Source: a virus
Taxonomy: Duplodnaviria; Heunggongvirae; Uroviricota; Caudoviricetes
IMG/VR virus record: IMGVR_UViG_2737471864_000005
Strand: one strand, 5' to 3'
Length of the DNA: 10,260 nucleotides
Below the pieces are notes generated by a model, which saw nothing but the letters and a program-made list of their open reading frames with translations, did no database searches and was not told the DNA's origin. Position 1 is the first letter of the stretch, and every line of letters starts with the position of its first letter. The position numbers and the translations under genes are program-made. This document shows positions 1 to 10,135 of the stretch, one piece after another.

Positions 1-30
1 TAAGTTGGAGTCATTACCCTCAAAATTTAA

Positions 31-71
31 AAATAAATAAAAAAAGGCGAAGCGTGAATACACGCCACGCC
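31..71 (-). terminator. Putative intrinsic terminator after the capsid gene
   Basis: Hairpin 46-71 (GGCG/CGCC and GCGTG/CACGC stems, AATA loop) followed on the minus strand by a T-run (complement of A-rich 31-45), 18 nt after the capsid stop. Confidence 0.55.
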
Positions 72-89
72 TCTATTACACGTTAAATA

Positions 90-1118
90 TTATTTAACAG
101 TGATTTGAACGGAGAAGCCAACGCCGTGGTTTACAACCATCTGGCTATTCTCTGTAACAACGTTAACAGCATCCCCGCGAGCAGACTCGTAACTGTAGCT
201 ATACACCTCAGCAGGAGCGGCATTAATCAGTTCAAAGGTGCTGGAAGCAGCCCCGTAGATGTTCTGATATACGTTAGAGCCTTTAGCAAACTTCGGAACA
301 GCTACAGCGTCTGCGGTCATATGTGCAAGGTGTAGCGGATCAGTCACTTTGATCAGGTCAATGTTAGTTCCTGGAATGGTGAAAGTAGTTACACCTGGTA
401 GCAGGGAACGCACATTAAACACCACGTTGGCATCGTCTACAGGGCTTGCATATTGGAAAGCATTGACCATACCAACACTGTAACGAATAGCGTTGAATGC
501 CGCAGGCTTACAGAATACTACGATACGCTCTACAGCAGCCGCCTGGCTTTGTGCTTTCTCCATAATATCCGTAGCAAGCTGGTCAAATTGCTTGAAAACG
601 GTCATTGTGTCAGTGGCGGAGGCGTTCACAGTGGCTTTCATAGGTGTCACATTAAACAGCTTGCCCCATTCGATAAGAACATCATCAGTTTTAGGCGTGT
701 AAGTTTTACCGCTAAACAGAGATGCAGCCAACACGCTCTCTTTTGTACGCTGATACGCTACGTGGTGTTTAGCGATATATTCCGCATAGATATCAGTGAG
801 TGTTTCCTGAAAATCAGTGCCAGGTTTACGTTTGCCTTGAACATCAGAAGGTCTAATCACATCTTCACGAAGAAAATACGGGATTTCAATCAGCCATTCT
901 TTACCTTGTTCTCGCTTAGTAACATTGTGTTCAGAACTAAAACGGCTTGTCTCTTTGTTAAAGAGAGATTCGTTGCTTTCGACAAGCTGTGAAACAGCTA
1001 CTTTGTGAGATGTAACCCCTACAGAATCCGTAAAATCAAGAGTAGAAAGCAGATAGTTTCTAGTGCTATGCGCAGAGAACAGAGGAGCTAAATCAACGTA
1101 ATCATTACCTAGAATCAT
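90..1118 (-). CDS. Major capsid protein, lambda gpE-like family
   Basis: 342-aa ORF, close to lambda gpE length. By-eye matches to remembered lambda gpE: FTDSVGVTSHKVAVSQL vs FRESYPFTTEKVYLSQI, SGKTYT vs KGKYTM, C-terminal GFSVQIT vs FVSVQLA. AAGGA SD 10 nt upstream of ATG; 18-nt gap to upstream gene. Confidence 0.8.
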   Translation of the reverse strand: MILGNDYVDLAPLFSAHSTRNYLLSTLDFTDSVGVTSHKVAVSQLVESNESLFNKETSRFSSEHNVTKREQGKEWLIEIPYFLREDVIRPSDVQGKRKPGTDFQETLTDIYAEYIAKHHVAYQRTKESVLAASLFSGKTYTPKTDDVLIEWGKLFNVTPMKATVNASATDTMTVFKQFDQLATDIMEKAQSQAAAVERIVVFCKPAAFNAIRYSVGMVNAFQYASPVDDANVVFNVRSLLPGVTTFTIPGTNIDLIKVTDPLHLAHMTADAVAVPKFAKGSNVYQNIYGAASSTFELINAAPAEVYSYSYESARGDAVNVVTENSQMVVNHGVGFSVQITVK

Positions 1119-1136
1119 TTATTATTATTCCTTTTA

Positions 1137-1499
1137 TTAAGAAGTGAAAACAGAATGGAACCCTTCAAGCTGGAAGCCTTTTTTAATTAATGCTGTTTTT
1201 GCTGCTTCACTTACAGCATTCAGCGCATCAGCTTTGATGCAGACAAGGCCAGCATTGCTACGTAGCACATCTACAGGCTTGTTTTCTCCAGCCGTTACAA
1301 ATTCACTCATAACAACATAGATATCATCTCCTGATTCATATTTAGCGCCAGTGCTGGTGATCAAGTCGCCGCACTCAACATCAGCAGGAAGAGAAGCAAA
1401 AACCTTGCTTTCTACAGAGGCAAACGGATCAGTACAATAAGCCACCAGATCTGTAAAAGTCTTTCGACTTGGAAATAGAGCGTCTAAATCAATAATCAT
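1137..1499 (-). CDS. Putative head decoration protein (gpD-like by size and position)
   Basis: 120-aa ORF immediately upstream of the gpE-like gene, as D precedes E in lambda; strong AAGGAG SD. Sequence similarity to lambda gpD is weak by eye, so the function rests mainly on synteny and size. Confidence 0.5.
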   Translation of the reverse strand: MIIDLDALFPSRKTFTDLVAYCTDPFASVESKVFASLPADVECGDLITSTGAKYESGDDIYVVMSEFVTAGENKPVDVLRSNAGLVCIKADALNAVSEAAKTALIKKGFQLEGFHSVFTS

Positions 1500-1708
1500 T
1501 TAGTAATCTCCTTAGCTTTTAATTTGATTAATTCATTAAGGGAAGGTGTAGACGGAGAAGAAGGAGAAAAATATTTTTCAACACATCTTTCTACTTCCTC
1601 TACAGAACACCCAGCGTATTTAGCTACCATTTCGGTAATTTGTGGATTGATCTTTAGCATTTCATCGCGATACTTGATGATTTGCTCTTTATCATTTAAG
1701 AACAACAT
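1496..1708 (-). CDS. Hypothetical 70-aa protein, first gene of the capsid operon
   Basis: ORF whose TGA stop overlaps the ATG of the downstream gene (ATGA overlap at 1496-1499), suggesting translational coupling. No recognisable motif. Confidence 0.45.
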   Translation of the reverse strand: MLFLNDKEQIIKYRDEMLKINPQITEMVAKYAGCSVEEVERCVEKYFSPSSPSTPSLNELIKLKAKEITK

Positions 1709-1830
1709 TTATATAAACCTTGTTACCTTGTTTAAAGTAAGAAATACAACTTTTAAGTTGCATAACGGGCAAAATAAAAGGCAGCATTTAAAGCCGCCTT
1801 TTATTAACTTGTACCTATGTAATTACCCTA

Positions 1831-1862
1831 TGTTATGCATACTCCAAGATGTATGCATAACA
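1831..1862. promoter_or_regulatory. Perfect 12-bp inverted repeat, candidate operator upstream of the capsid operon
   Basis: TGTTATGCATAC (1831-1842), 8-nt spacer, GTATGCATAACA (1851-1862), exact reverse complements, about 130 bp upstream of the operon start codon at 1708. Confidence 0.5.
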
Positions 1863-1882
1863 AAGGAAAAAAGAGGTATAAT
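1854..1882 (+). promoter_or_regulatory. Possible plus-strand sigma70-like promoter overlapping the palindrome
   Basis: Exact TATAAT at 1877-1882 with a weak -35-like TGCATA about 17 bp upstream; would drive a short transcript toward the weak hairpin plus T-tract at 2041-2062. Confidence 0.25.
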
Positions 1883-2060
1883 GACACAGTATTTACTTAA
1901 GGAGGAGGAGAAGCGGGGAGCGGAGATTTTACTCCCCTTTAACGACAAGAAGAATTTTTAATATCGAACCAATAAAGGAAAAATAATCACCCCTATATAA
2001 TTATATTAACATACAATATATGAAATGCCAAGATATTTTACAACTTTTTTGTTGCTTTTT

Positions 2061-2399
2061 TTATTCTTCTGTGATAGCAGCGCCTAAGCGTTGTGCGAGT
2101 TCGATAAGGCCATCTCCCACATAGCGAACATCAGATTCAATATCTTCTATCCAGTTTGATAGCTCCCATATCTGATCCGCTGTTAGATATGCGTTCTCAC
2201 GCTTACAGAGCATCTCTACACGCTTAGAGAGGTGCTCAAAGGCATTCACAGCTAAATCCCAGTGTTTAAACGCCTCATTGAGTGCCGCTGGCGTGTTTTC
2301 TCTGTATGCTTCAAGTTCAGCGCGGTTTAAAGGCAGGAGGTAATCATCCTCATAATAATTAATTAGTGAGTAAATTGTGTCATACGTGTTTTTGTTCAT
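2061..2399 (-). CDS. Hypothetical acidic protein (112 aa from preferred start)
   Basis: ORF track gives 2061..2426; I prefer the ATG at 2399, which has a GGAG SD 9 nt upstream and sits just after the upstream gene stop (2401-2403). No recognisable domain. Confidence 0.5.
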   Translation of the reverse strand: MNKNTYDTIYSLINYYEDDYLLPLNRAELEAYRENTPAALNEAFKHWDLAVNAFEHLSKRVEMLCKRENAYLTADQIWELSNWIEDIESDVRYVGDGLIELAQRLGAAITEE

Positions 2400-2400
2400 A

Positions 2401-2811
2401 TTAAAAGTCTCCATAGTGATCAGCATTCTCTAAAATCTGGAAGTCTGGGACTAAGTTATTTAGGCCATTGGTGGCGAGATAACCGACGTAGTGGTTATAG
2501 TCTTCAAATCCTAAAATCTGGTATTTGCGCAAATCAGAGCTATCAACGATATACTCTTTTCTTTTTCTAGGTTTCCAGAATACGCCAGGTGTTGAAGATA
2601 AGATTTCTTGTAATGCGTTAAATTCATCTCCGCAAGGCACAGAGGGAGAATGTTCTATGATCTCTGTTTTCCATTCGCCAGGGGCGCTATTTTGCTTGGA
2701 GAGCGTAACTAGCTCTTTAAAGTCTTTACGTCTTAGAATAGATTTAGGTTTACTTAGAAGAGAAGCTGAATCACCGATTTTCTTAACAACGTTGTTTTTT
2801 CTTTTTGCCAT
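2401..2811 (-). CDS. Hypothetical protein with basic N-terminus (136 aa)
   Basis: ORF with AAGGA SD upstream; lysine/arginine-rich N-terminus (MAKRKNNVVKK). No recognisable domain. Confidence 0.55.
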   Translation of the reverse strand: MAKRKNNVVKKIGDSASLLSKPKSILRRKDFKELVTLSKQNSAPGEWKTEIIEHSPSVPCGDEFNALQEILSSTPGVFWKPRKRKEYIVDSSDLRKYQILGFEDYNHYVGYLATNGLNNLVPDFQILENADHYGDF

Positions 2812-2902
2812 TATTTACTTTTCCTTTTCTTTTAAAGGAAAACACCCCGAAGTATGTTTCTACGAGCATAAAAAACAACAACCACCACATAGCTATTACC
2901 AT
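2783..2902 (-). CDS. Candidate small hydrophobic peptide (39 aa), low confidence
   Basis: Hand translation of the 132-bp gap between the 92-aa and 136-aa genes: MVIAMWWLLFFMLVETYFGVFSFKRKGKVNNGKKKKQRC, hydrophobic N-terminus with basic tail, AAGGA 10 nt upstream. Overlaps the start of the 136-aa gene out of frame; could be a chance ORF in AT-rich DNA. Confidence 0.2.
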   Translation of the reverse strand: MVIAMWWLLFFMLVETYFGVFSFKRKGKVNNGKKKKQRC

Positions 2903-2943
2903 AATAATGTTTTCCTTTTATATTTTAATTACATAGAGAGATT

Positions 2944-3222
2944 TTAGAGAGTGGAATAGATGAAGTCTATTTCTCTGTCTAGTCTTTTGAGATTGAATGT
3001 AGAGAAAGATAATTCTTTAATCTCAATAACACCGAAGTTTGATAGCTGTTTCAGCCAGAATTTTAAACCATCTTCAGAGCACCCTGCTCGGTGTAACACA
3101 TCGCTATATTTTAGCGGTGTTGGCTTTCCTTTATAGAGGTAAGCAAGTGTTTCGTAGATGCGTTTTCCTGTGTCATTACACTGAATTCTGTCTACTTGAT
3201 TTTTTACTAAATATTGAATCAT
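2944..3222 (-). CDS. Hypothetical small protein, possibly DNA-binding (92 aa)
   Basis: ORF with strong AAGGAGG SD; 11-nt gap after the upstream gene. Possible helix-turn-helix-like segment, not verifiable by eye. Confidence 0.5.
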   Translation of the reverse strand: MIQYLVKNQVDRIQCNDTGKRIYETLAYLYKGKPTPLKYSDVLHRAGCSEDGLKFWLKQLSNFGVIEIKELSFSTFNLKRLDREIDFIYSTL

Positions 3223-3233
3223 AACCCTCCTTA

Positions 3234-3905
3234 TTAAAATGGAATATCAAAGTCTTCATATACTTTGGGATGTTTCTTAGCAAAATATGCCTCAATACCA
3301 TTTGGTAGCTTTAACCTGTGCTTATAGGCTAACGATGTTGCAAATTCTATAAATGATGCTCCTCCTGTTCTTTTGTGTTTCTCCTGGATGATAAGAGAGG
3401 AAAAATTCTCTAACACATCCTCCTCATTATCATTAGCTACCTTTTCACTTGATGAAACAGGTGTTTCTTCCGTCTCCCAGGGTAAAGGCGTATCCCAATC
3501 ATCATCAAGAACATCAAAAGAAGGCTGTTTATTATCTTCCGTAGGGGGAAGCTGATCAGGAACAGTTTTAACAGTAGCTTCTTGTTGTGTCTGGGCTTCT
3601 TGTTCATAAGGAAGGACAATATAAGCATTTGTGCTACCTGCCCTTTCCTCAATCTTCAACCATCCAAAAGAAACAAGATCTTTGATATGACGGCGTACCG
3701 TCTGATCTGTACCTACTCCTAACCGCTCACCAATACCTTTCAAAGATGGTGTTACCTTTTGGTATGTGCCAGATAAACTTAACAAATAAGAATAAATGAT
3801 CTTATGGTGTAGTTTTACTTCTTTTGTTTTGCCGTTAATCACCAGGGAAGTGATTGCTAGTAAGTCATAATCTATTCCTAAAAAAGGTTTTGTATGTTTA
3901 ATCAT
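3234..3905 (-). CDS. Winged-HTH DNA-binding protein with acidic linker; possible replication initiator or replisome organiser
   Basis: 223-aa ORF with AAGGAG SD. N-terminal region (KIIYSYLLSLSGTYQKVTPSLKGIGERLGVGTDQTVRRHIKDLVSFGWLKIEE) resembles wHTH domains of phage O / DnaD-type initiators; central acidic tract (DDDWDTPLPWETEE). Function is an architectural inference. Confidence 0.55.
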   Translation of the reverse strand: MIKHTKPFLGIDYDLLAITSLVINGKTKEVKLHHKIIYSYLLSLSGTYQKVTPSLKGIGERLGVGTDQTVRRHIKDLVSFGWLKIEERAGSTNAYIVLPYEQEAQTQQEATVKTVPDQLPPTEDNKQPSFDVLDDDWDTPLPWETEETPVSSSEKVANDNEEDVLENFSSLIIQEKHKRTGGASFIEFATSLAYKHRLKLPNGIEAYFAKKHPKVYEDFDIPF

Positions 3906-3959
3906 TAAAAAAGCTCCTTGATGTAATCACGCTCTACGGCGCTACTATGGTGATAAAAA

Positions 3960-4130
3960 TCACTTGCTTTTATTTGAGAGTGTTTCAGCCTCTCTTTTCA
4001 ACATATCAAGAATGTAATCTGTGACAGTGATACGTCTACTTCTGGCTTCTTTAAATAACACCTGAAATACTTCATCAGGAATATGAAAGCAAGTGCGTGG
4101 TTGTCTTTTCTTTTCTGTAGTTTCGCTCAT
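3960..4130 (-). CDS. Ribbon-helix-helix (CopG/Arc-type) DNA-binding protein (56 aa from preferred start)
   Basis: ORF track gives 3960..4175; the in-frame ATG at 4130 has a strong AAGGAG SD 6 nt upstream and avoids overlap with the upstream gene. PRTCFHIPDEVFQVLFKEARSRRITVTDYILDMLKRE fits a beta-strand plus two-helix RHH pattern. Confidence 0.55.
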   Translation of the reverse strand: MSETTEKKRQPRTCFHIPDEVFQVLFKEARSRRITVTDYILDMLKREAETLSNKSK

Positions 4131-4149
4131 AGTTTTCTCCTTCTTTTCT

Positions 4150-4338
4150 TTACTCTGTTTCAGATTCTTTTTCATTTTTTCTTAGTTCATCAATAATCTT
4201 GAGTGCTTCATTGAAGCAAGCTGCTCGCTCTGGATAACCTCGACTCCTTGCCATATTACGATTCATTACTACTTGATGGCGAGATAACTCACCTTTTTTA
4301 AATGCCGAGACGACGTGTTCCGGTGTAAACCATTTCAT
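4150..4338 (-). CDS. Hypothetical 62-aa protein, first gene of the regulatory operon
   Basis: ORF with AAGGAG SD 6 nt upstream, directly downstream of the predicted promoter and leader hairpin. Confidence 0.5.
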   Translation of the reverse strand: MKWFTPEHVVSAFKKGELSRHQVVMNRNMARSRGYPERAACFNEALKIIDELRKNEKESETE

Positions 4339-4355
4339 AAAAAACTCCTTATTCA

Positions 4356-4394
4356 GTTAAAAGAAAAAACACCTTGCAAGCCTGACGGCTTCAA
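4356..4394 (-). terminator. Leader hairpin plus U-tract, possible attenuator
   Basis: Stem AAGCC/GGCTT with TGAC loop (4378-4391), extended by TTG/CAA with a 1-nt bulge; on the minus strand followed by GGTGTTTTTTCTTTT. Lies between the predicted promoter and the first RBS. Confidence 0.4.
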
Positions 4395-4444
4395 AGTGCA
4401 TTGATTTTGATTATTTAGAGAAGAATGTTTTCTGTCCCTCTAAT

Positions 4445-4477
4445 ACCTATTATTACATATAAAGAAACATTTGTCAA
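4445..4477 (-). promoter_or_regulatory. Putative sigma70 promoter for the 4338-to-2061 operon
   Basis: Minus strand reads TTGACA (plus 4472-4477), 17-nt spacer, AATAAT; about 100 nt upstream of the first start codon. Confidence 0.4.
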
Positions 4478-5009
4478 TACCTTTTCACAAAAAATCTGAT
4501 CTTTTTCATGCACTTACATTTTTTCTTAGCTATTCGTGCTCTTCTGTGTAGTGCTATTCTTCATTATCCGCTAAAACGCTCTAAAACGCGTTCTAACGAG
4601 ATTTTGATAAAAGCAATACATTCCCTTATGTAATGGCTGTTTAGCTCGCCAGAGGCTTATTTAAGGGGCTTATTTTGTATTTGTTAGGTATATGAAAAGG
4701 TGATTGTAGATATAAGATAGAGAGTCACTTTATAAAACGCTCTGTAAAGCCCTGTAGTGAGTTTATATATGTAGACAATGCGTTTCCATTCCCTACCCTG
4801 CTTAATGCTGTTAGAGAAGCATTTAGACCCCTTATTTTTAATTAATTAAAGTATCCTCTATACACTCCTGTTATGAAACACCTCTGAATCCTTCATAAAA
4901 CACATTATGACGCAAAGAACACTTTTCTAAGGTGATTCCCTTCCTGAATGCTGTTTCTTGCGTCAGAGAGCTACAGAGAGCTTATAAAGCTATTATTAAT
5001 AATAAAGTA

Positions 5010-5062
5010 GATAAGTAAGATAAGTAAGTAAGATAACTAAGATAGATAAGATTAATAAGATC
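5010..5062. repeat. Tandem degenerate 9-mer array (GATAAGTAA-like, 5 units)
   Basis: GATAAGTAA, GATAAGTAA, (GTAA), GATAACTAA, GATAGATAA, GATTAATAA, GATC read directly from the sequence. Confidence 0.6.
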
Positions 5063-5105
5063 AGAATTCTCTTTCGGTGTCGCCTCTGGCTTTTCCACCG
5101 AAAAC

Positions 5106-5260
5106 AATTACACGACTACAGAATGTAGAAGTGGAATTGTATTGAGGCTTAGTGAAATTACACGAGGAAAGCAGAGTGTAATTGAGCTTTAGCCACTCTC
5201 TCTTCGAGTAATTACACAACTACAGAGAATAACAGAGTTATTAAGTGTAGGAGGGTAATT
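5106..5260. repeat. Cluster of AATTACAC motifs with nested short inverted repeats
   Basis: AATTACAC at about 5106, 5157 and 5210; AATTACAC-N12-GTGTAATT inverted pair (5157-5183); CTACA-N-TGTAG dyads at 5115-5127 and 5219-5250; AATAAC-AGA-GTTATT at 5228-5242. Confidence 0.55.
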
Positions 5261-5323
5261 AAGAGGTAGAGAGATAGAGTTAACACGTAAGCAATCTGTA
5301 GATTGGTTAGGTGATTACTCTTA

Positions 5324-5495
5324 CTGCGCACAGCGCAATAGTATTTCTTCGTGGGCGTTATCGCCAACGAAGTTACACGAAGAAAGTAACGCTTTGCTTT
5401 CGGTGTGAGCGGAACGGGCCAGCCAACGTAGCCCGAAAGGTAGCGGAGTAAGGCTGCTTGCCAGAGAGTGAAGCTAACGCCGGAAGGCAAAAAGA
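5324..5495. other. GC-rich island of consecutive stem-loops (candidate structured RNA or DNA site)
   Basis: TGCGC-ACA-GCGCA (5325-5337); CTTCGT-G-GGCG-TTAT-CGCC-A-ACGAAG (5347-5372); GTTAC-N9-GTAAC (5372-5390); CGGGC-N11-GCCCG (about 5414-5434). Markedly more GC-rich than its flanks. The only ORF here (5212..5499 minus) is low-complexity and likely spurious. Confidence 0.35.
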
Positions 5496-5498
5496 TCA

Positions 5499-5675
5499 TA
5501 TATATATAGATATAAAGAATATTATTTAATTATTATTTAATTATTCTTATTAACTTATTCTTATCGGGTATCAGTTTTGATAGGGGTAGGGGTATCAGAC
5601 TTGATAGGGGTAGTCATATCAAAGTTAATAGGGGTATCAATATTGATAGGGGTAACAGAATTCTGTGGGGGTAGC
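5499..5675. promoter_or_regulatory. Candidate replication origin: AT-rich unwinding tract plus five palindromic iterons
   Basis: Near-pure AT tract 5499-5562, then TGATAGGGGTA-type units starting at about 5578, 5602, 5626, 5644 and 5664 (spacing 24, 24, 18, 20 bp). Units form TGATA-GGGG-TATCA dyads, consistent with a dimeric binding protein. Confidence 0.5.
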
Positions 5676-5716
5676 TCACAGTGACCTACCGTTACTACCA
5701 ATCATCACATAGCACT

Positions 5717-6200
5717 CTGTGTAATGTCTTTCTATGTGCGTGCCATAATCCCCCTATATTCCCTGTGTAAATCATAGAATAATGCTCTCTATTCCCTGTG
5801 TAATTCCATACTAAAAAATCCAATGAAAAGTAGCTTAAAAGTGCAATTCTTACTTTCTTCACTTTTACATCACTTTCGCAAATCCTTGTGTAGTGCGGCT
5901 TACAGAGCACCATCAGAAATTGTTGGCTAAAAATTGTTCTGCTTGTTTCTTAATGAGTTTTCTTGTTTGTGCAAATTTTAAAATTTATTTTGTTTTTATA
6001 GCCTTATTTCGTGTAATGCGTGGCATAGCAAGCCCTTTTCTTGTGTTGTCAAGACATTTGGCAACGTTCAAACATCTGTTTAGAAATGCCAAATTGTTGA
6101 TCTAACAAATAAACCTGTATAAACAGAACACCATTTAATCTATCCCCCTGTGTATCCATTAGGCATACCAAATGAATACATCTAAATCGTGTAATATTCC
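5717..6200. repeat. Dispersed GTGTAAT / CTGTGTAA motifs (reverse orientation of the 5106-5260 cluster)
   Basis: CTGTGTAAT-like motifs at about 5717, 5765, 5800, 5885, 6010, 6148 and 6188, including ATTCCCTGTGTAA twice (5758-5812). Confidence 0.5.
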
Positions 6201-6285
6201 GTACCTATAAGGCTTGAAACAGACCAAATGAATACGATATACTCATTTGCATTGAAGTAGTGCCAAATCGATACATTAAGAGGAT
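6160..6285. promoter_or_regulatory. Candidate res site (three resolvase-binding subsites) upstream of the recombinase
   Basis: ACCAAATGAATAC at 6167-6180 and 6223-6235; the latter pairs with ATACTCATTTG (6239-6249) as an imperfect dyad; third related copy CCAAATCGATAC at 6263-6274. Ends just before the recombinase start. Confidence 0.4.
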
Positions 6286-6288
6286 TTT

Positions 6289-6828
6289 ATGAGCAATATC
6301 GGTTATAAGCGTGTGAGCACTGTAGATCAGAACACTGATCGCCAGCTTGCAGGAGTAACGCTTGATAAAGTCTTTGAAGATAAGCTGTCAGGTAAAGACA
6401 CTAACCGTCCAGGATTGCAGGCGTGTTTATCCTATCTGAGAGAAGGCGACACCTTACACGTCCACTCTCTTGATCGTTTAGGGCGTAACACCTTAGACAT
6501 TCTGGAGTTAATCAAACAATTGAATGATCGAGGTGTAATTGTTCGCTTTCACAAAGAAGGAATCATTGCTGACATTACAAGCGCGATGGGAAAGATGATG
6601 CTTACGATGTTGTCGGCAGTTGCAACGTGTGAACGTGAACTGATGTTAGAGCGTAAACGAGAAGCGCAAGCCGTCAATCCTACAAAGCGTGGTAAAGGGA
6701 AGGCAGTAGATAGGGAAGGTATAAAGAAAGCCCTTTCCGCTGGAGTGTCAGTGCGTAAAACCGCCGAGAGCTTTAATGTTGCTCCTTCAACGGTGCAACG
6801 TATCAAGAAGGAAGAAGAGGAGGCGTAA
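6289..6828 (+). CDS. Small serine recombinase, resolvase/invertase family
   Basis: 179 aa. N-terminal GYKRVSTVDQ with catalytic-serine context, DRLGRN, GKMMLTMLSAVATCERELMLER helix, and C-terminal HTH-like tail resembling gamma-delta/Tn3 resolvase. GAGGA SD 4 nt upstream. Confidence 0.85.
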   Translation: MSNIGYKRVSTVDQNTDRQLAGVTLDKVFEDKLSGKDTNRPGLQACLSYLREGDTLHVHSLDRLGRNTLDILELIKQLNDRGVIVRFHKEGIIADITSAMGKMMLTMLSAVATCERELMLERKREAQAVNPTKRGKGKAVDREGIKKALSAGVSVRKTAESFNVAPSTVQRIKKEEEEA

Positions 6829-6836
6829 TGCCTCCT
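6818..6836 (+). terminator. Hairpin overlapping the recombinase stop codon
   Basis: AGGAGGC-GTAAT-GCCTCCT perfect 7-bp stem (6818-6836); downstream T-tract is weak, so terminator function is uncertain. A second hairpin TCTGGA-TTT-TCCAGA lies at 6851-6865. Confidence 0.3.
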
Positions 6837-7155
6837 TGATATTTGGGGATTCTGGATTTTCCAGATCGGGGGGCGCTGATCTTCGCGTTAAACATTGATC
6901 ACGTTTGCGCCGATTTCAGATAAAAAGGCAGCTATTAAGCAATACGTAACTTTTACAATTAGTGAAATTATCTAAAACACAAGTTATATAGATGAGAAAA
7001 TGAAATATTATCTTGAACAAATCAAACAAAACAACACATCATCTTGTTGACACCATGCAAAGTGAATAGTAAGCTATTATATGTGAAAATTTGCACATTG
7101 CATGCAATAAAAAATAAATGATACCTTGTTGTTGTTAAATCAATAGGGGGTATCT

Positions 7156-7314
7156 ATGCGCTTTATCTTATCCATTTTAAAAACCTGCAGAACCACAATT
7201 ACTTTAGCTGTAATTGTTACCATCATATACCTCATCTATTTTACCCCTCGAGATAAAATCGATTCACTAGCGATCATCGTTCATGCAATGGCTACATTAA
7301 CTAAAAAACTTTAA
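7156..7314 (+). CDS. Candidate small membrane peptide (52 aa)
   Basis: Hand translation: MRFILSILKTCRTTITLAVIVTIIYLIYFTPRDKIDSLAIIVHAMATLTKKL. AGGGGG SD 5 nt upstream of ATG. One predicted transmembrane helix. Not in the ORF track, presumably because it is under the length cutoff. Confidence 0.4.
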   Translation: MRFILSILKTCRTTITLAVIVTIIYLIYFTPRDKIDSLAIIVHAMATLTKKL

Positions 7315-7327
7315 TAATTTCACTATC

Positions 7328-7371
7328 AGGCGCACAAACACATCTTTGATTGCTGGATGTGTTATGCGCCT
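7328..7371. other. Long imperfect inverted repeat between two convergent small genes
   Basis: AGGCGCACAAACACATC (7328-7344), 11-nt loop, GATGTGTTATGCGCCT (7356-7371). No clear U-tract on either strand, so it may be a binding site or RNA structure rather than a canonical terminator. Confidence 0.4.
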
Positions 7372-7380
7372 ACTGGTGAT

Positions 7381-7533
7381 TCAATCCTTAAGCCATTTCA
7401 ACTCACTAAGGAGTTTTCTTTCTTCGTTCTCTCGCTGTTTACGCTCTAGCCAGGCTTTTCCCTCTGGCGTAGACAGGAACTTACGAGCGTGAATCTTGCG
7501 GTTATTACGTTTTATAGCTGCAATGTTTTTCAT
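7381..7533 (-). CDS. Candidate small basic protein (50 aa)
   Basis: Hand translation: MKNIAAIKRNNRKIHARKFLSTPEGKAWLERKQRENEERKLLSELKWLKD. AGAGG SD about 7 nt upstream. Highly basic, likely helical. Confidence 0.4.
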   Translation of the reverse strand: MKNIAAIKRNNRKIHARKFLSTPEGKAWLERKQRENEERKLLSELKWLKD

Positions 7534-8355
7534 CGTGTTGCCTCTGTATTCATATGAAAATTAACAAGTTACATACTACACAGGGAGACTACGCATAAAA
7601 CACAATACAAGTAAAGATACATTTTCAAGACAATAGGAGCCATAAAGCGCCTTTGATGGTTATACCAAAAAATAAGCGCCGTAGGCGTATCCACTAAAAG
7701 GGCTTTTTCACAAAAGCTATGAAGTCTTAGCAGTTCTTCTCTTATCAGGCACCCGTTGTACTCCGGTGGACGAAACCGTGCTAGAGCTTGATTCTTTCCC
7801 GATCAAGTTAGGTTTTGAAGAGGTGGGCTTTAATCCACTATTGCACTTAAAACTCTTCCCATCATTTAGCCTGTTTATCCTCTGCAACGTCTCACGACGT
7901 GTGGCATCATTGGACACCGCGCCAGGTGTGGAACATCTTGCTAAGAGTTTTGGTAGAAGGTTTAGAGACGGTGGCACGTCTTCCAGCTTCAAAGGAACTT
8001 GTTACGAGGTTGAGCCTGGGAACTACTCGCCCATACGTGTTACACTACCAAAGCCCATAACAACGTATAGGCGTTTGTAAGTGATAACAGAAGATACAAT
8101 TTCTTAGAGAAGTTAAGCTAAGTTATTGATTTTCTTAATGGTGCGATAATAGGAACAATACACATAGGCGATAAGCTTTGTTTTTGTTGCCTTTTTTATT
8201 GTTCATTTTTTATAGATACCCCCAAAAGTACCCCCATATCTTTTTCCGCCCCTGAAATTTGGTTGTTATTCATACAGCATATCAGGCGGTAACGCTCTCC
8301 CTTTAACCCACTTATTGTATGATAGTGCTATCCCACAATAAGGAATCAGCCAGCC

Positions 8356-8715
8356 ATGAGAATGACCAGTCGCAAAAAAGAGATACTTAGCTACTTTGAA
8401 CCGGATAACCTCGAATGGGTGACTGGTGAGATTGGTGCGCCGCCGTTCGATGTGTCGGGTGTGGCCTACCTGCTTCATGGCATGGTGTCGTTCGATAAGC
8501 GTCACCAGCTCGAATCAACCCGGCACACACTGGAAAGCATGGTTGCTGGTGGACTGCTTGAGCGGGTGACAGTGTATGAATCGCGCCAGATACGGCGCGG
8601 CGGTGATACTAACGCAACGGTCGTGCGCTACGGTTTACCCGGTCAGTGCGCTGTTATGCGCGATACTGGCGGCGCTGACAACGCAATATCAGGTGAATAC
8701 ATGCGGGTCAGTTAA
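8356..8715 (+). CDS. Hypothetical protein (119 aa), enterobacterial-type composition
   Basis: ORF with GC-rich codon usage unlike the AT-rich region to its left; weak AGGA SD. Its 3-prime end overlaps the convergent gene by 8 nt. No family recognised. Confidence 0.5.
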   Translation: MRMTSRKKEILSYFEPDNLEWVTGEIGAPPFDVSGVAYLLHGMVSFDKRHQLESTRHTLESMVAGGLLERVTVYESRQIRRGGDTNATVVRYGLPGQCAVMRDTGGADNAISGEYMRVS

Positions 8716-9250
8716 TAGCCTGCAATCTGTCGTTGATGCGGCTCAGGTCGTAAACCCGGCGTTCAATATCCAGCATCAGGAAATTGTGGATCTCGGCCTG
8801 CTCAGGATTATCAGACTCTCTGGCCTGTAATAGCAATTCATTGTAACCATGCAAGCCGCCTGAGTTTTCCGCCGGGGTGGTGCCTTTCCCACGCAGGCAG
8901 CTAATGGGCTGATTACTCGTATCGTGTGTTTGCTTCTCCAGCACAATGACGCAATCCCACCAGTCGCCAAAGTCATACGTGTAAACCAGCTTGTCACCCT
9001 CATTCTGGAGCGCCGCCCATAGTGGCGTGATTGCCGCGTTACCCATGCTTTCATCCTCACCCCATACGCGATACTCGCTACCTGGATCACCTTTACGCCC
9101 TTTCTCGAACATATACAGGTGTTCGTCATTCCAGCCAAAAGCTAACTGGATCACGGCATGAAGTTTACTAAAGGGGATTTGCTCTGGAACCAGCACACGC
9201 CGCCATATAGGTGGTTTGCTGTCTCGGATGGTTATCTTTAGCTGGTACAT
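8708..9250 (-). CDS. pRiA4b ORF-3-like family protein
   Basis: 180 aa. N-terminal MYQLKITIRDSKPPIWRRVLVP and FGW...YDFGDWW motifs match my memory of the plasmid pRiA4b ORF-3 domain family; assignment is by recall only. Confidence 0.65.
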   Translation of the reverse strand: MYQLKITIRDSKPPIWRRVLVPEQIPFSKLHAVIQLAFGWNDEHLYMFEKGRKGDPGSEYRVWGEDESMGNAAITPLWAALQNEGDKLVYTYDFGDWWDCVIVLEKQTHDTSNQPISCLRGKGTTPAENSGGLHGYNELLLQARESDNPEQAEIHNFLMLDIERRVYDLSRINDRLQAIN

Positions 9251-9853: not shown

Positions 9854-10135
9854 CTACCTTTGCCTCTTGCCGCCATTTAACCGGAAGGCGTTACCGTTCG
9901 GTTGCGCTATCCCCATGCGGTGTTGCGTTTCGGTAACAGCTTTATGCAGGTCGCCAAATTCCTCAACCTTCACGGGCGGGCGCTTCACGTTCTCCAGACA
10001 CGTTTCACGGCGGCGCTTTATCCATTCCCGATCATCGTCCTCAGTGCATAACAGCATGACTTCCATCCATCGTGCGGCAGCTCTCCGGTATAGCCCTTTT
10101 GACTCCAGCTCTTCAGCTTTCCTGTCCCTTATCAT
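9854..10135 (-). CDS. PerC-family transcriptional regulator-like protein
   Basis: 93 aa. N-terminal pattern AEELESKGLYRRAAARWMEVM...REWIKRRRETCL matches the conserved PerC/Pch N-terminal motif as I recall it. GAGAGG SD 5 nt upstream. Confidence 0.65.
   Translation of the reverse strand: MIRDRKAEELESKGLYRRAAARWMEVMLLCTEDDDREWIKRRRETCLENVKRPPVKVEEFGDLHKAVTETQHRMGIAQPNGNAFRLNGGKRQR

Follow-up and report, generated by a model that had tools for sequence, protein, structure and literature searches.

The window, by which we mean the whole stretch of DNA analysed here (10,260 nucleotides (nts), IMG/VR record IMGVR_UViG_2737471864_000005), carries near its first position a capsid unit of three minus-strand ORFs, which runs from 1708 to 90 and is transcribed in the order 70 aa, 120 aa and 342 aa. 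All three ORFs were found where a preliminary description of this DNA had placed them. The 120-aa ORF overlaps the 70-aa ORF by 4 nts, and its stop codon is located 18 nts ahead of the capsid start. The coordinates of the features discussed below are collected in Table 1.

Table 1. Features of the capsid unit and of the surrounding element, in window coordinates.
Feature	Position	Strand	Basis or detail
Terminator-like hairpin and T-run after the capsid gene	41..73	-	Scan: 9 pairs, 5 of them G-C, then GCCTTTTTTT
342-aa major capsid protein, HK97 fold, lambda gpE family	90..1118	-	Pfam, PHROG and PDB profile matches
120-aa head decoration (cement)-like protein	1137..1499	-	Foldseek matches of the AF2 model; position next to the capsid gene
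70-aa protein, first gene of the capsid unit	1496..1708	-	ORF; all-helical, helix-turn-helix-like motif ITEMVAKYAGCSVEEVERCVEKY
Terminator-like hairpin	1771..1799	-	AGGCGGC-TTTAAAT-GCTGCCT followed by TTTATTTT; read from the sequence, missed by the automatic scan
Perfect 10-bp inverted repeat	1833..1860	.	TTATGCATAC / GTATGCATAA (1860-1851 / 1842-1833), 8 nt between the arms; intergenic
223-aa replication initiator, N-terminal winged-HTH DNA-binding domain	3234..3905	-	Pfam HTH_36, 1.1e-7; PHROGs 'replication initiation protein', 4e-12
Sigma-70-type promoter of the leftward early operon (62 aa, 71 aa, initiator onwards)	4449..4477	-	TTGACA, 17-nt spacer, AATAAT
Five iteron-like direct repeats	5563..5672	+	Core GATAGGGGTATCA; repeat family D1
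Right end of the element, att core	8144..8154	+	CGATAATAGGA; the homology block ends at 8154 and a different island lies beyond it in the window

The 342-aa protein had been described as a lambda gpE-like capsid protein, and the profile search confirmed this. It matched Pfam Phage_cap_E (PF03864) above the gathering threshold (E = 1.1e-15, 58 bits, cutoff 22.9) over the full length of the profile (positions 13-329 of 329), and it also matched PHROG 29, 'major head protein'. The nearest solved structure by sequence is 9ZBI, the capsid protein of Pakpunavirus P7-1 (5e-11). The 51 homologues returned are confined to Enterobacterales chromosomes, and PF03864 is precomputed on 49 of them. Identity with the capsid protein of Justusliebigvirus is 19-24%, as measured on phage VEcB (the ends of the Muut record are not contiguous, and its capsid gene was not rebuilt by joining them). 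The dN/dS ratio was 0.10-0.14 for the capsid gene and 0.13-0.29 for the 120-aa gene, and therefore these are not chance ORFs; over all structural genes of the element the ratio was 0.06-0.29, indicating purifying selection. An encapsulin was also considered for the 342-aa protein and rejected, as encapsulins belong to a different family.

The 120-aa protein matched no Pfam or PHROG family and gave no PDB sequence-profile match, and BLAST found no similarity to the decoration protein of Justusliebigvirus; by sequence it falls outside the gpD-like (beta-tulip) decoration family. Its AlphaFold (AF2) model, which is of moderate confidence (mean pLDDT 68, rising to about 84-86 in blocks within residues 31-80), is similar in fold to decoration proteins. 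The best six Foldseek matches in the PDB were chains of 122-146 residues from the capsid reconstructions of Sf14, Bas63 and phiTE (probability 0.90-1.00, TM 0.49-0.55), which we take for decoration or cement chains from the chain length and from the titles of the entries; the phiTE protein alone carries such a name. Against BFVD, the top match was a 'head decoration protein', with matches in Rheinheimera and Pectobacterium phages (E = 1.9e-4, TM 0.62-0.65); the E-values of the decoration matches as a whole ranged from 1.9e-4 to 2.6e-2. The gene is placed directly upstream of the capsid gene, like phi92 gp123 and P7-1 gp70, and the same decoration-capsid order is found in Muut and VEcB. The best matches of the model thus point to a head decoration (cement)-like protein, which upholds the decoration gene proposed earlier by structure, the family profile search being empty. 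That a cement protein is kept together with a capsid protein would argue for real, DNA-filled shells and not for decoys.

The first gene of the unit is conserved in position and size (66-71 aa) in six members of the family to which the element belongs (see below), with an identity between variants of only 13-28%. No Pfam, PHROG or PADLOC family was found for the 70-aa protein, the homologue search returned only relatives that were 88-100% identical, and among PDB profiles only spurious matches to designed helical repeats and HTH segments below significance came up. The structure prediction that had been suggested for it was made and yielded four helices, with a pLDDT of 58.7 that is too weak for fold assignment or fold search. 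We regard the protein as a candidate regulator or DNA-binding factor. It was also compared with the small protein encoded after the capsid gene in relatives, and a paralogous relation was not supported (hhalign probability 22%); the two have similar N-terminal 'ILK' and HTH-like motifs despite this value.

Hairpins bracket the capsid unit. The downstream terminator that had been proposed is present as a hairpin and T-run, and an equivalent hairpin follows the capsid gene in other family members (six were read by eye), the Sodalis element being doubtful. On the other side, the 352 nts upstream of the 70-aa gene hold the second hairpin of Table 1, 62 nts upstream of the start of that gene, and the 10-bp inverted repeat, a candidate operator or RNA hairpin. 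The upstream hairpin probably ends the early transcription unit, and all six family members read by eye have a comparable hairpin ahead of the small gene. That the unit is a self-contained operon, as had been claimed, is true only in part; in relatives a second structural unit with tail-lumen genes follows the capsid terminator, so the structural region extends past the capsid unit. Scanning upstream of the unit revealed only weak promoter-like sites. Comparison of six family members with the structural intergenic regions of phage Muut, which contain plain sigma-70-consensus promoters, showed no shared motif upstream of the 70-aa gene or the post-capsid gene that would suggest a helper-responsive promoter. 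Rfam gave no match over the whole window at E-values up to 0.1.

The genes further upstream had been taken for small regulators. Two of them are candidate regulators, one with a weak Arc-like match; another is a replication initiator, and three are unknown. In the promoter of the early operon, the TTGACA hexamer is invariant and the -10 region is conserved in an alignment of five family members including Klebsiella. The N-terminal 123 aa of the initiator are identical at 122 positions (99%) to the N-terminus of Muut gp094, a T5orf172/MUG113 nuclease, and window positions 3537-3965 are 96% identical to Muut DNA, while neither a T5orf172 nor a MUG113 domain was found in the initiator itself. The iteron-like repeats probably serve as the origin of replication and as the target of the phage nuclease; in relative L002, which has a different initiator allele, no conservation of the region was seen. 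The nucleases of Muut, Inny and Mt1B1_P17 carry N-terminal domains that are 99%, 88% and 82% identical, respectively, to three different initiator alleles of the family. The second DNA-binding domain of these nucleases, which was reported without a cognate in 2023 (PMC10448857), is 75% identical to a fourth satellite replicon type. In ICP1, the chimeric T5orf172 nuclease Odn bears the DNA-binding domain of the PLE initiator and serves as a counter-attack on PLE (PMC8263062). By analogy with ICP1 Odn and PLE RepA, the matching of initiators and nucleases would be the signature of an arms race.

The part of the element beyond position 1 can be read from relative L001, which is 100% identical to the window over positions 13-8154 and contains a 12,452-bp element in tRNA-Thr (thrW). 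Its order is int, Dit-like, tape measure, 67 aa, capsid, 120 aa and 70 aa, and then on to the initiator, iterons and a serine recombinase. Beyond the equivalent of window position 1 there are, in turn, the 67-aa gene, a 610-aa tape-measure homologue, a 237-aa Dit-like tube initiator, a tyrosine integrase, an att site and the chromosome. The 13-bp att repeats CGATAATAGGAGT are direct and 12,452 bp apart; the integrase adjoins one, and the other is in thrW, the 3′ end of which corresponds to the att core of Table 1. The window shows the right att core only, and the tape-measure and tube-initiator genes are seen only in relatives. The second structural unit of relatives consists of the small HTH-like gene, the tape-measure homologue and usually the tube initiator, and all 22 relatives inspected share a common layout except for the tube-initiator gene (absent in two) and the type of recombinase.

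These data bear on another reading, in which the window would be cut from an ordinary prophage, with the genes for portal, protease, scaffold and terminase directly beyond its end. The window does end 89 nts past the capsid gene, and its first 12-18 nts are unlike every relative found; no match was obtained when the loci retrieved and collections of viral, metagenome and species-representative genomes were scanned for exact patterns. Downstream of the capsid gene, however, L001 and 21 other family members have the small ORF, the tape measure, usually the tube initiator, and a recombinase, with no homologue of terminase, portal or protease, and the upstream side of the window is occupied by replication and regulatory genes and the att site. 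Sixteen further relatives from IMG/VR, searched in the sequence retrieved (up to 10 kb on each side of the capsid gene), contained no homologue of the phi92-type terminase, portal, protease, scaffold-like, sheath or tube proteins, and tblastn with TerL, portal and protease of that type gave no match. The earlier remark that these head genes are missing therefore extends beyond position 1, to L001 and the 16 loci. An ordinary prophage is refuted for all relatives, and we give it practically no chance for the window. The 16 loci all come from isolate genomes, where they were called as prophage-type on contigs 19-76 kb long, and are uninformative on encapsidation. A gene transfer agent and a tailocin were rejected as well, since the gene content does not fit.

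The tail genes link the element to a particular group of phages. The tube initiator of relatives is 61% identical to Justusliebigvirus gp018 / phi92 gp135 (E = 2e-78), and the tape measure has its homologue in phi92 gp134 (E = 2.7e-34), the two genes being adjacent in the same order as in the phage. Divergence between satellite and phage differs between the two pairs, as the tail pair is much closer (27-61%) than the head pair (19-24%). The lambda gpD/gpE genes and phi92 gp123/gp124 and gp134/gp135 form the same adjacent pairs in the same order as in the element; the capsid (gpE), tape-measure and tube-initiator families are shared, and the cement protein is of the same fold class. In phi92 these pairs sit in complete head and tail operons of a phage with a T=13 head and about 146 kb, whereas in the element they stand alone in 12 kb. 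Large virulent phi92-like myoviruses (Stephanstirmvirinae) are most likely what the element parasitises. With a capsid protein as distant as this from that of the presumed helper, it is not assured that the two systems work together at the portal, scaffold and protease.

A decaying remnant of a phi92-related prophage, which has lost most structural genes and has no current function, would also present just fragments of a virion gene set. IS insertions occur in some copies (IS2-like in the tape-measure gene of L021 and L024, and an IS in several E. coli matches), and one integrase is frameshifted. Apart from the IS cases, however, the ORFs are intact in 22 of the 22 loci inspected, and the strong purifying selection described above applies. 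The compact gene order is common to elements of E. coli, Klebsiella and Sodalis, the capsid proteins of which are 41-58% identical, and the modular initiator alleles are tracked by phage nucleases. Moreover, by taxonomy and annotations the phi92-like phages are virulent and lack an integrase module. This alternative is close to refuted and we assign it a very small probability. The family was also found in Citrobacter, Enterobacter, Cronobacter and Serratia, and the module is present in 397 of 5,426 complete E. coli genomes (~7%), in chromosomes only and in up to three places per genome.

A capsid-plus-decoration pair had been expected of an element that exploits a helper phage; this is supported here, and the same reading has been published independently (PMC10448857). 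Barth, Dunham and Seed described in 2023 putative E. coli satellites as the presumed targets of the origin-directed nucleases of Muut, Inny and Mt1B1_P17. These satellites encode an integrase as well as decoration, capsid, tape-measure and baseplate-component proteins, have att repeats at a tRNA or at lysR, and possess an initiator of the RepA_N type that matches the phage nuclease in its DNA-binding domain; absent from them are terminase, protease, alpA, adaptors and Pri-Rep (PMC10448857). The present element agrees on each point. The N-terminal domain of its initiator is homologous to the phage T5orf172 nuclease and stands without a nuclease domain, att sites, integrase and tRNA are found in L001, and the structural set is there, with the tape measure and the baseplate component in relatives only. 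Pfam and PHROG scans of the element's ORFs showed no terminase, prohead protease, alpA, head-tail adaptor or Pri-Rep, and besides the integrase only the capsid protein and the tape measure exceed 250 aa. The element is thus a member of the Barth-Dunham-Seed family with the Muut-cognate initiator allele (99%), and nothing essential differs. The satellite reading is therefore not new, having been predicted by computer in 2023 for the family (PMC10448857). Experimental induction, packaging or transfer of the family was found neither in the literature nor here. What is added to that report (PMC10448857) is the structural support for the decoration protein, the homology to phi92 gp134 and gp135, the selection analysis, the iterons, the early promoter, the 7% prevalence in complete E. 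coli genomes, the wider range of genera and the cognate allele for the second DNA-binding domain.

The family lies between known strategies, since it neither remodels the coat of the helper, unlike P4, SaPI and PLE, nor carries a whole head, unlike cf-PICIs. Like this element, cf-PICIs have their own HK97-fold capsid protein and do not remodel that of the helper, which supplies the rest of the virion. The gene set of cf-PICIs includes a portal; from their temperate helpers they need the tails only, and they are not known to have tail genes themselves. The head part of the present element, in contrast, comprises only shell and cement, to which two tail-lumen genes are added, and its phage relatives are virulent myoviruses. 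It is not a cf-PICI, as no portal, prohead protease, head-tail adaptors, small or large terminase, alpA or Pri-Rep of its own was detected. PLE of V. cholerae (helper ICP1) is similar in being a chromosomal satellite of a virulent myovirus, which is here the presumed life style, and in its initiator-plus-iteron replicon with modular DNA-binding domains; homology between PLE genes and those of this element was compared by family scans only. PLE re-sizes the ICP1 coat protein with the external scaffold TcaP, and to our knowledge it has neither a capsid nor a tape-measure gene. P4 (helper P2) resembles the element in genome size, in a capsid decoration protein (Psu in P4), in the integrase and in its own replication. 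It is 11.6 kb long and is packaged in a T=4 shell, for which it uses the helper capsid protein gpN and the Sid external scaffold; we know of no capsid, tape-measure or tube-initiator gene in P4. Membership of the P4-like group was rejected, as Pfam and PHROG scans of the element proteins gave no match to psu, sid, delta, the alpha primase-helicase or eps. Tail-lumen proteins brought by the satellite are unique to the present family.

From these comparisons, we consider it likely that window positions 90-1708 make up the head-shell part of a phage satellite that is integrative, measures about 12.45 kb and has a phi92-like helper. Upon infection by such a phage, the element would excise and replicate from the iterons. 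Its own capsid protein would build a small shell sized for about 12 kb (compare 11.6 kb and T=4 in P4, and about 146 kb and T=13 in the helper), and trimers of the 120-aa cement protein would stabilise it. The helper would supply the portal, maturation protease, terminase, neck, sheath, tube and baseplate, while the tape measure and tube initiator of the element would replace those of the helper inside the tail. The outcome would be transducing particles at a cost borne by the helper, and some helpers would respond with a nuclease bearing the DNA-binding domain of the satellite initiator. No small-terminase-like or pac/cos function that would account for packaging specificity was identified in the element. 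More tentatively, and with the balance of our judgement somewhat against it, the particle may be a true chimera of two unrelated lineages, in which the satellite shell and cement sit on the helper portal, the satellite tape measure and tube initiator lie in the contractile tail of the helper, and the phage nucleases are bispecific. If this holds, no earlier satellite would be known to adapt the virion in both respects, its container and its DNA-delivery core.

Should the predictions for the family hold, a satellite of large virulent phages that is both common and amenable to genetics would be available in E. coli. The questions raised are how a foreign capsid recruits the helper portal, what purpose its own tape measure has, and how nucleases track satellite replicons. 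The presumed helpers, the phi92/phAPEC8 group, are under consideration for therapy, in which the element could both confer resistance and serve to transfer genes.

Helper exploitation has also to be weighed against a defence island that acts by assembly interference only, in which the capsid, cement, tape measure and tube initiator would be dominant-negative proteins that poison phi92-like head and tail assembly, and the element itself would not be packaged. The structural homologues are indeed partial sets that are unable to build a virion alone, and interference with tail assembly by satellite and prophage proteins is documented (Tai systems, PMC11364771). The phage countermeasure, being aimed at the replicon of the element, implies merely that the element harms phages. 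The integrase, att sites, initiator and iterons of the element, however, speak against interference only. Since the element has moved among several integration sites and genera without conjugation genes, a transfer route is called for, and the estimated sizes of about 12-13.6 kb for the E. coli, Klebsiella and Sodalis elements suggest a packaging limit. The cement protein would be needed only on closed, expanded shells, and PADLOC found no defence family among the ten small proteins of the element. We therefore regard interference as the sole function as unlikely. The two activities, interference and transduction, may also occur together, as they do in PLE and PICI.

Inspection of the three minus-strand genes at 90-1708, which the preliminary description had proposed as a stand-alone capsid and decoration module, found the open reading frames in place, and the gpE-type capsid assignment was borne out. 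Pfam places the 342-aa protein in Phage_cap_E along its whole length (E = 1.1e-15; score 58 bits, cutoff 22.9; alignment to positions 13-329 of the 329-position profile), and it also matched PHROG 29, 'major head protein'. The best match among solved structures was the capsid protein gp71 of Pakpunavirus P7-1 (PDB 9ZBI, E = 5e-11), a 344-aa protein that builds a T=9 shell covered by the gpD-like trimer gp70, the product of the adjoining gene (PDB 9ZBI). Identity of the element protein was 19-24% to the Justusliebigvirus capsid protein and about 23% to those of Pseudomonas myoviruses. Both the capsid gene (dN/dS 0.10-0.14) and the 120-aa gene (0.13-0.29) are under purifying selection.

The 120-aa protein had no sequence-family match in Pfam, PHROG or a PDB profile search, and the 95 homologues collected, all from Enterobacterales, are without exception annotated 'hypothetical'. 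Its structure, predicted from an alignment of 23 of these homologues, had a mean pLDDT of 68, with blocks of about 84-86 across residues 31-80. When the model was compared with the PDB using Foldseek, the best six matches were 122-146-residue chains from the Sf14, Bas63 and phiTE capsid reconstructions (probability 0.90-1.00, TM about 0.5), which were taken to be decoration or cement chains, and the top match among predicted viral structures was a 'head decoration protein' (E = 1.9e-4, TM 0.62-0.65). These matches support, with moderate confidence and at the fold level, the decoration-like protein suspected earlier.

The 70-aa protein is all helices with a helix-turn-helix (HTH)-like motif in a weak predicted model (pLDDT 58.7), and gave no significant match in Pfam, PHROG, PADLOC or the PDB. 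Hairpins like those listed in the table flank the three-gene unit, by eye, in six compared members of the family, the post-capsid hairpin being doubtful in the Sodalis element. Both structural units of the element start with a small protein (66-71 aa, window 1496-1708; 59-67 aa, 11791-11994 of the LZHX12 locus, L001) that has an 'ILK' strand at the N-terminus and an HTH-like motif. The two may be paralogous regulators or excision/packaging factors; profile comparison did not support their homology (probability 22%).

Features of the element, its neighbouring island and the related phage nucleases (window positions unless a locus is named)
Feature	Position	Strand	Basis or remark
Hairpin and T-run 3′ of capsid gene	73..41	minus	sequence scan
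342-aa capsid protein gene	1118..90	minus	ORF, third in reading order
120-aa gene	1499..1137	minus	ORF, second; 4-nt overlap with 70-aa gene
70-aa gene	1708..1496	minus	ORF, first
Terminator-like hairpin upstream of 70-aa gene	1799..1771	minus	read from sequence
Perfect 10-bp inverted repeat upstream of 70-aa gene	1860-1851 / 1842-1833
Three small genes upstream of capsid unit		minus	no assignment
223-aa winged-HTH replication initiator, upstream of capsid unit		minus	HTH_36; PHROG 'replication initiation protein'
Two small genes upstream of capsid unit		minus	weak Arc-like match in one
Sigma-70 promoter, conserved	4477..4449	minus	TTGACA / 17-nt spacer / AATAAT
Five iteron-like direct repeats	5563-5672		core GATAGGGGTATCA, spacing 18-24 nt
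179-aa resolvase/invertase-type serine recombinase	6289-6828	plus	Pfam Resolvase 9.6e-34; PHROG 'DNA invertase'
att core, element end	8144-8154
pRiA4b ORF-3 family gene, neighbouring island	8708-9250
PerC-family regulator gene, neighbouring island	9854-10135
67-aa gene	past position 1, in LZHX12
610-aa protein (tape-measure gene)	past position 1, in LZHX12 (L001 9943-11775)		PHROG 'tape measure', 3e-48; equivalents in relatives L002, L003, L010, L011
237-aa protein	past position 1, in LZHX12		Pfam Dit_like, 3.5e-29
Tyrosine integrase	past position 1, in LZHX12
Phage Muut gp094	L009 4371-5369		N-terminal domain is the element initiator domain (122/123 residues identical)
Muut gp094, second domain	residues 123-230		winged-HTH
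Muut gp094, C-terminal domain			MUG113/T5orf172 (GIY-YIG-type) nuclease
Homologous nuclease, phage Inny	L012 1057-2160
Homologous nuclease, phage Mt1B1_P17	L013 1414-2400

The window is E. coli DNA, and strain LZHX12 is 100% identical to it across 13-8154. There the element occupies 12,452 bp between CGATAATAGGAGT repeats, one of which lies in the 3′ end of the thrW tRNA-Thr, adjoining proA; family members are estimated at ~12-13.6 kb. Within it, only the integrase and the homologues of capsid protein and tape measure exceed 250 aa, and among its ORFs none is similar to a portal, protease, scaffold or terminase. The layout recurs, with the tube initiator sometimes missing and the recombinase type varying, in divergent elements of E. 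coli, sited at tRNA-Gly and tRNA-Thr, in Klebsiella and Sodalis, and in 16 further loci, where the sequence retrieved on either side of the capsid gene, at most 10 kb each way, contained no homologue of the terminase, portal, protease, scaffold-like protein, sheath or tube of phi92-type phages. Of 5,426 complete E. coli genomes, 397 carried the three-gene module, on chromosomes only and at up to three places per genome. An ordinary prophage with its head genes just outside the window is contradicted by LZHX12 and the other relatives, 22 inspected in all, the source's own downstream sequence not being among them. Since none of these genes accompanies the module in the relatives, and the capsid profile match is full-length, neither observation that the preliminary description had named as speaking against it was made. 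A prophage remnant is likewise contradicted, by the purifying selection and by an architecture kept across genera. In two relatives (L021 and L024, 12228-13503), an IS2-like insertion sequence of the IS3 family splits the tape-measure gene, so that some family copies are inactivated.

The genes beyond position 1 link the element to phages. In phages of Justusliebigvirus and Phapecoctavirus, the gene adjoining that for the tape measure encodes a protein with 61% identity to the 237-aa protein. The latter also matches the hexameric tube initiator of phi92, gp135 (2e-78). The phi92 tape measure, gp134, is matched by the 610-aa protein (2.7e-34), whose N-terminal 66 residues are 51% identical to it and whose ~450 C-terminal residues are 27-39% identical, reaching the end of the phage protein. 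The two genes adjoin as they do in the phage, with their order kept, and a single phage group, the phi92-like phages, is indicated by this tail-lumen pair. The head pair has the order of phi92 gp123 (cement) and gp124 (capsid, T=13), with a divergence far greater than that of the tail pair. Tape-measure length is 610-616 aa in E. coli and Klebsiella and 650 aa in Sodalis (L006), with alleles down to 24% identical (24-30%), and compared with the 659-aa phage protein a segment is missing after the first ~66 residues. The constant length and the missing segment are consistent with a ruler setting a slightly different tail length. In phages Muut (L008 2398-2877) and VEcB (L030 9753-10232), the gene flanked by those for the portal and the scaffold-like protein is annotated 'DNA methyltransferase'; it matches Pfam Peptidase_S78_2 (2.5e-11), the family of the XkdF-type prohead protease, and this public annotation is probably wrong.

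A conserved leader of ~110 nt (4339-4448) lies between the sigma-70 promoter and the first early gene, with a short hairpin (4392..4377) directly before that gene. The arrangement suggests an early promoter that is constitutive and a leader that is regulated, and no obvious repressor for it was found. The iterons, ~1.7 kb from the initiator gene, are a probable origin of replication; their region is not conserved in the relative L002, whose initiator allele differs. Promoter and iterons both lie in ~2 kb (4339-6288) that has no convincing ORF or Rfam match, within a compact 12-kb element, and an equivalent gene-less gap of 1.1-2.3 kb was present in every family member examined. Two blocks, 4112-4753 (including a 62-aa gene) and 5765-5940 (containing direct repeats CTaTATTCCCTGTGTAAaTC), exceed most small genes of the element in conservation. 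The serine recombinase, with direct repeats near its gene (6164-6179 and 6220-6235), is present besides the tyrosine integrase of relatives and is missing in some variants (L010, L011); it could act in inversion, resolution or alternative integration. With integrase, att sites, initiator and iterons, the element is mobile and self-replicating in design.

The initiator provides a second link to these phages. Window 3537-3965, encoding initiator residues 1-123, is 96% identical in DNA to phage Muut, the sole match among 50,697 phage records. The N-terminal domains of the Inny and Mt1B1_P17 nucleases differ from that of Muut and are 88% and 82% identical, respectively, to the initiators of two other family variants. 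The second winged-HTH domain, common to the phage nucleases, shares 75% identity (E = 6e-59) with the N-terminus of the initiator in the tRNA-Gly element from strain FDAARGOS_1286 (L010 15263-15928), a fourth satellite variant, whose initiator is 90% identical to the allele of another relative, L020. The phage nucleases share their architecture with Odn of ICP1, an origin-directed nuclease by which the PLE satellite is destroyed (PMC8263062). There has been sequence exchange between phi92-like virulent phages and the element's tail genes and replicon, and the phages bear nucleases tailored to element replicon alleles.

The element holds conserved, selected genes for shell, cement protein, tape measure and tube initiator and is without the remaining needs of a virion. 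We propose that infection by a phi92-like phage would trigger its excision and replication, and that its capsid protein would form a small shell, cemented by the 120-aa protein and fit for ~12 kb. By comparison, the T=4 shell of P4 takes 11.6 kb, and the T=13 shell of the helper about 146 kb. Portal, protease, terminase, neck, sheath, tube and baseplate would come from the helper, whose tail would incorporate the element's tape measure and tube initiator. A pure assembly-interference defence is possible and compatible with a satellite, but it leaves the mobility, size constancy and cement protein unexplained. Because the cement protein is conserved alongside the capsid protein, the pair argues for real, pressurised shells and not decoys.

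The family has already been described, bioinformatically only, by Barth, Dunham and Seed (NAR Genomics and Bioinformatics 2023; PMC10448857), and the same picture was reached independently here. Their study reported Odn-like genes in Inny, Muut and Mt1B1_P17 and, in E. coli and its relatives, 224 'putative satellites' that contain bacterial homologues of the nuclease RepA_N domains and have att sites on their flanks, at tRNA or lysR loci. These encode decoration, capsid, tape-measure, baseplate and integrase proteins and are without the terminase, protease, alpA, adaptor and Pri-Rep genes of cf-PICIs (PMC10448857). The second RepA_N domain was stated to have no detectable satellite cognate, whereas the FDAARGOS_1286 initiator is such a match. 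That report contains no experiments, and no follow-up study was found in the literature. Our analysis adds the cement fold evidence, phi92 structural homologues, selection analysis, iterons, early promoter, prevalence and genus range. Together with the partial head set, phi92-like tail genes and Odn-like nucleases, the published description supports the earlier suggestion of an element exploiting a helper phage; the system is real and common, is unusual for a satellite, and lends itself to direct tests in E. coli.

At the edge of the window, the terminal 12-18 nt (positions 1-18) are unlike all 1,645 matching E. coli records and had no exact-pattern match in viral, metagenome or species-representative genome collections. 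They include an ATG (14..12) at which the gene past the capsid terminator begins, and the source therefore carries an unseen allele of that gene. At the other end, no tRNA follows the att core according to ARAGORN, and the sequence from there to 10260 belongs to a different island of higher G+C, which indicates that islands lie in tandem at thrW in the source genome.
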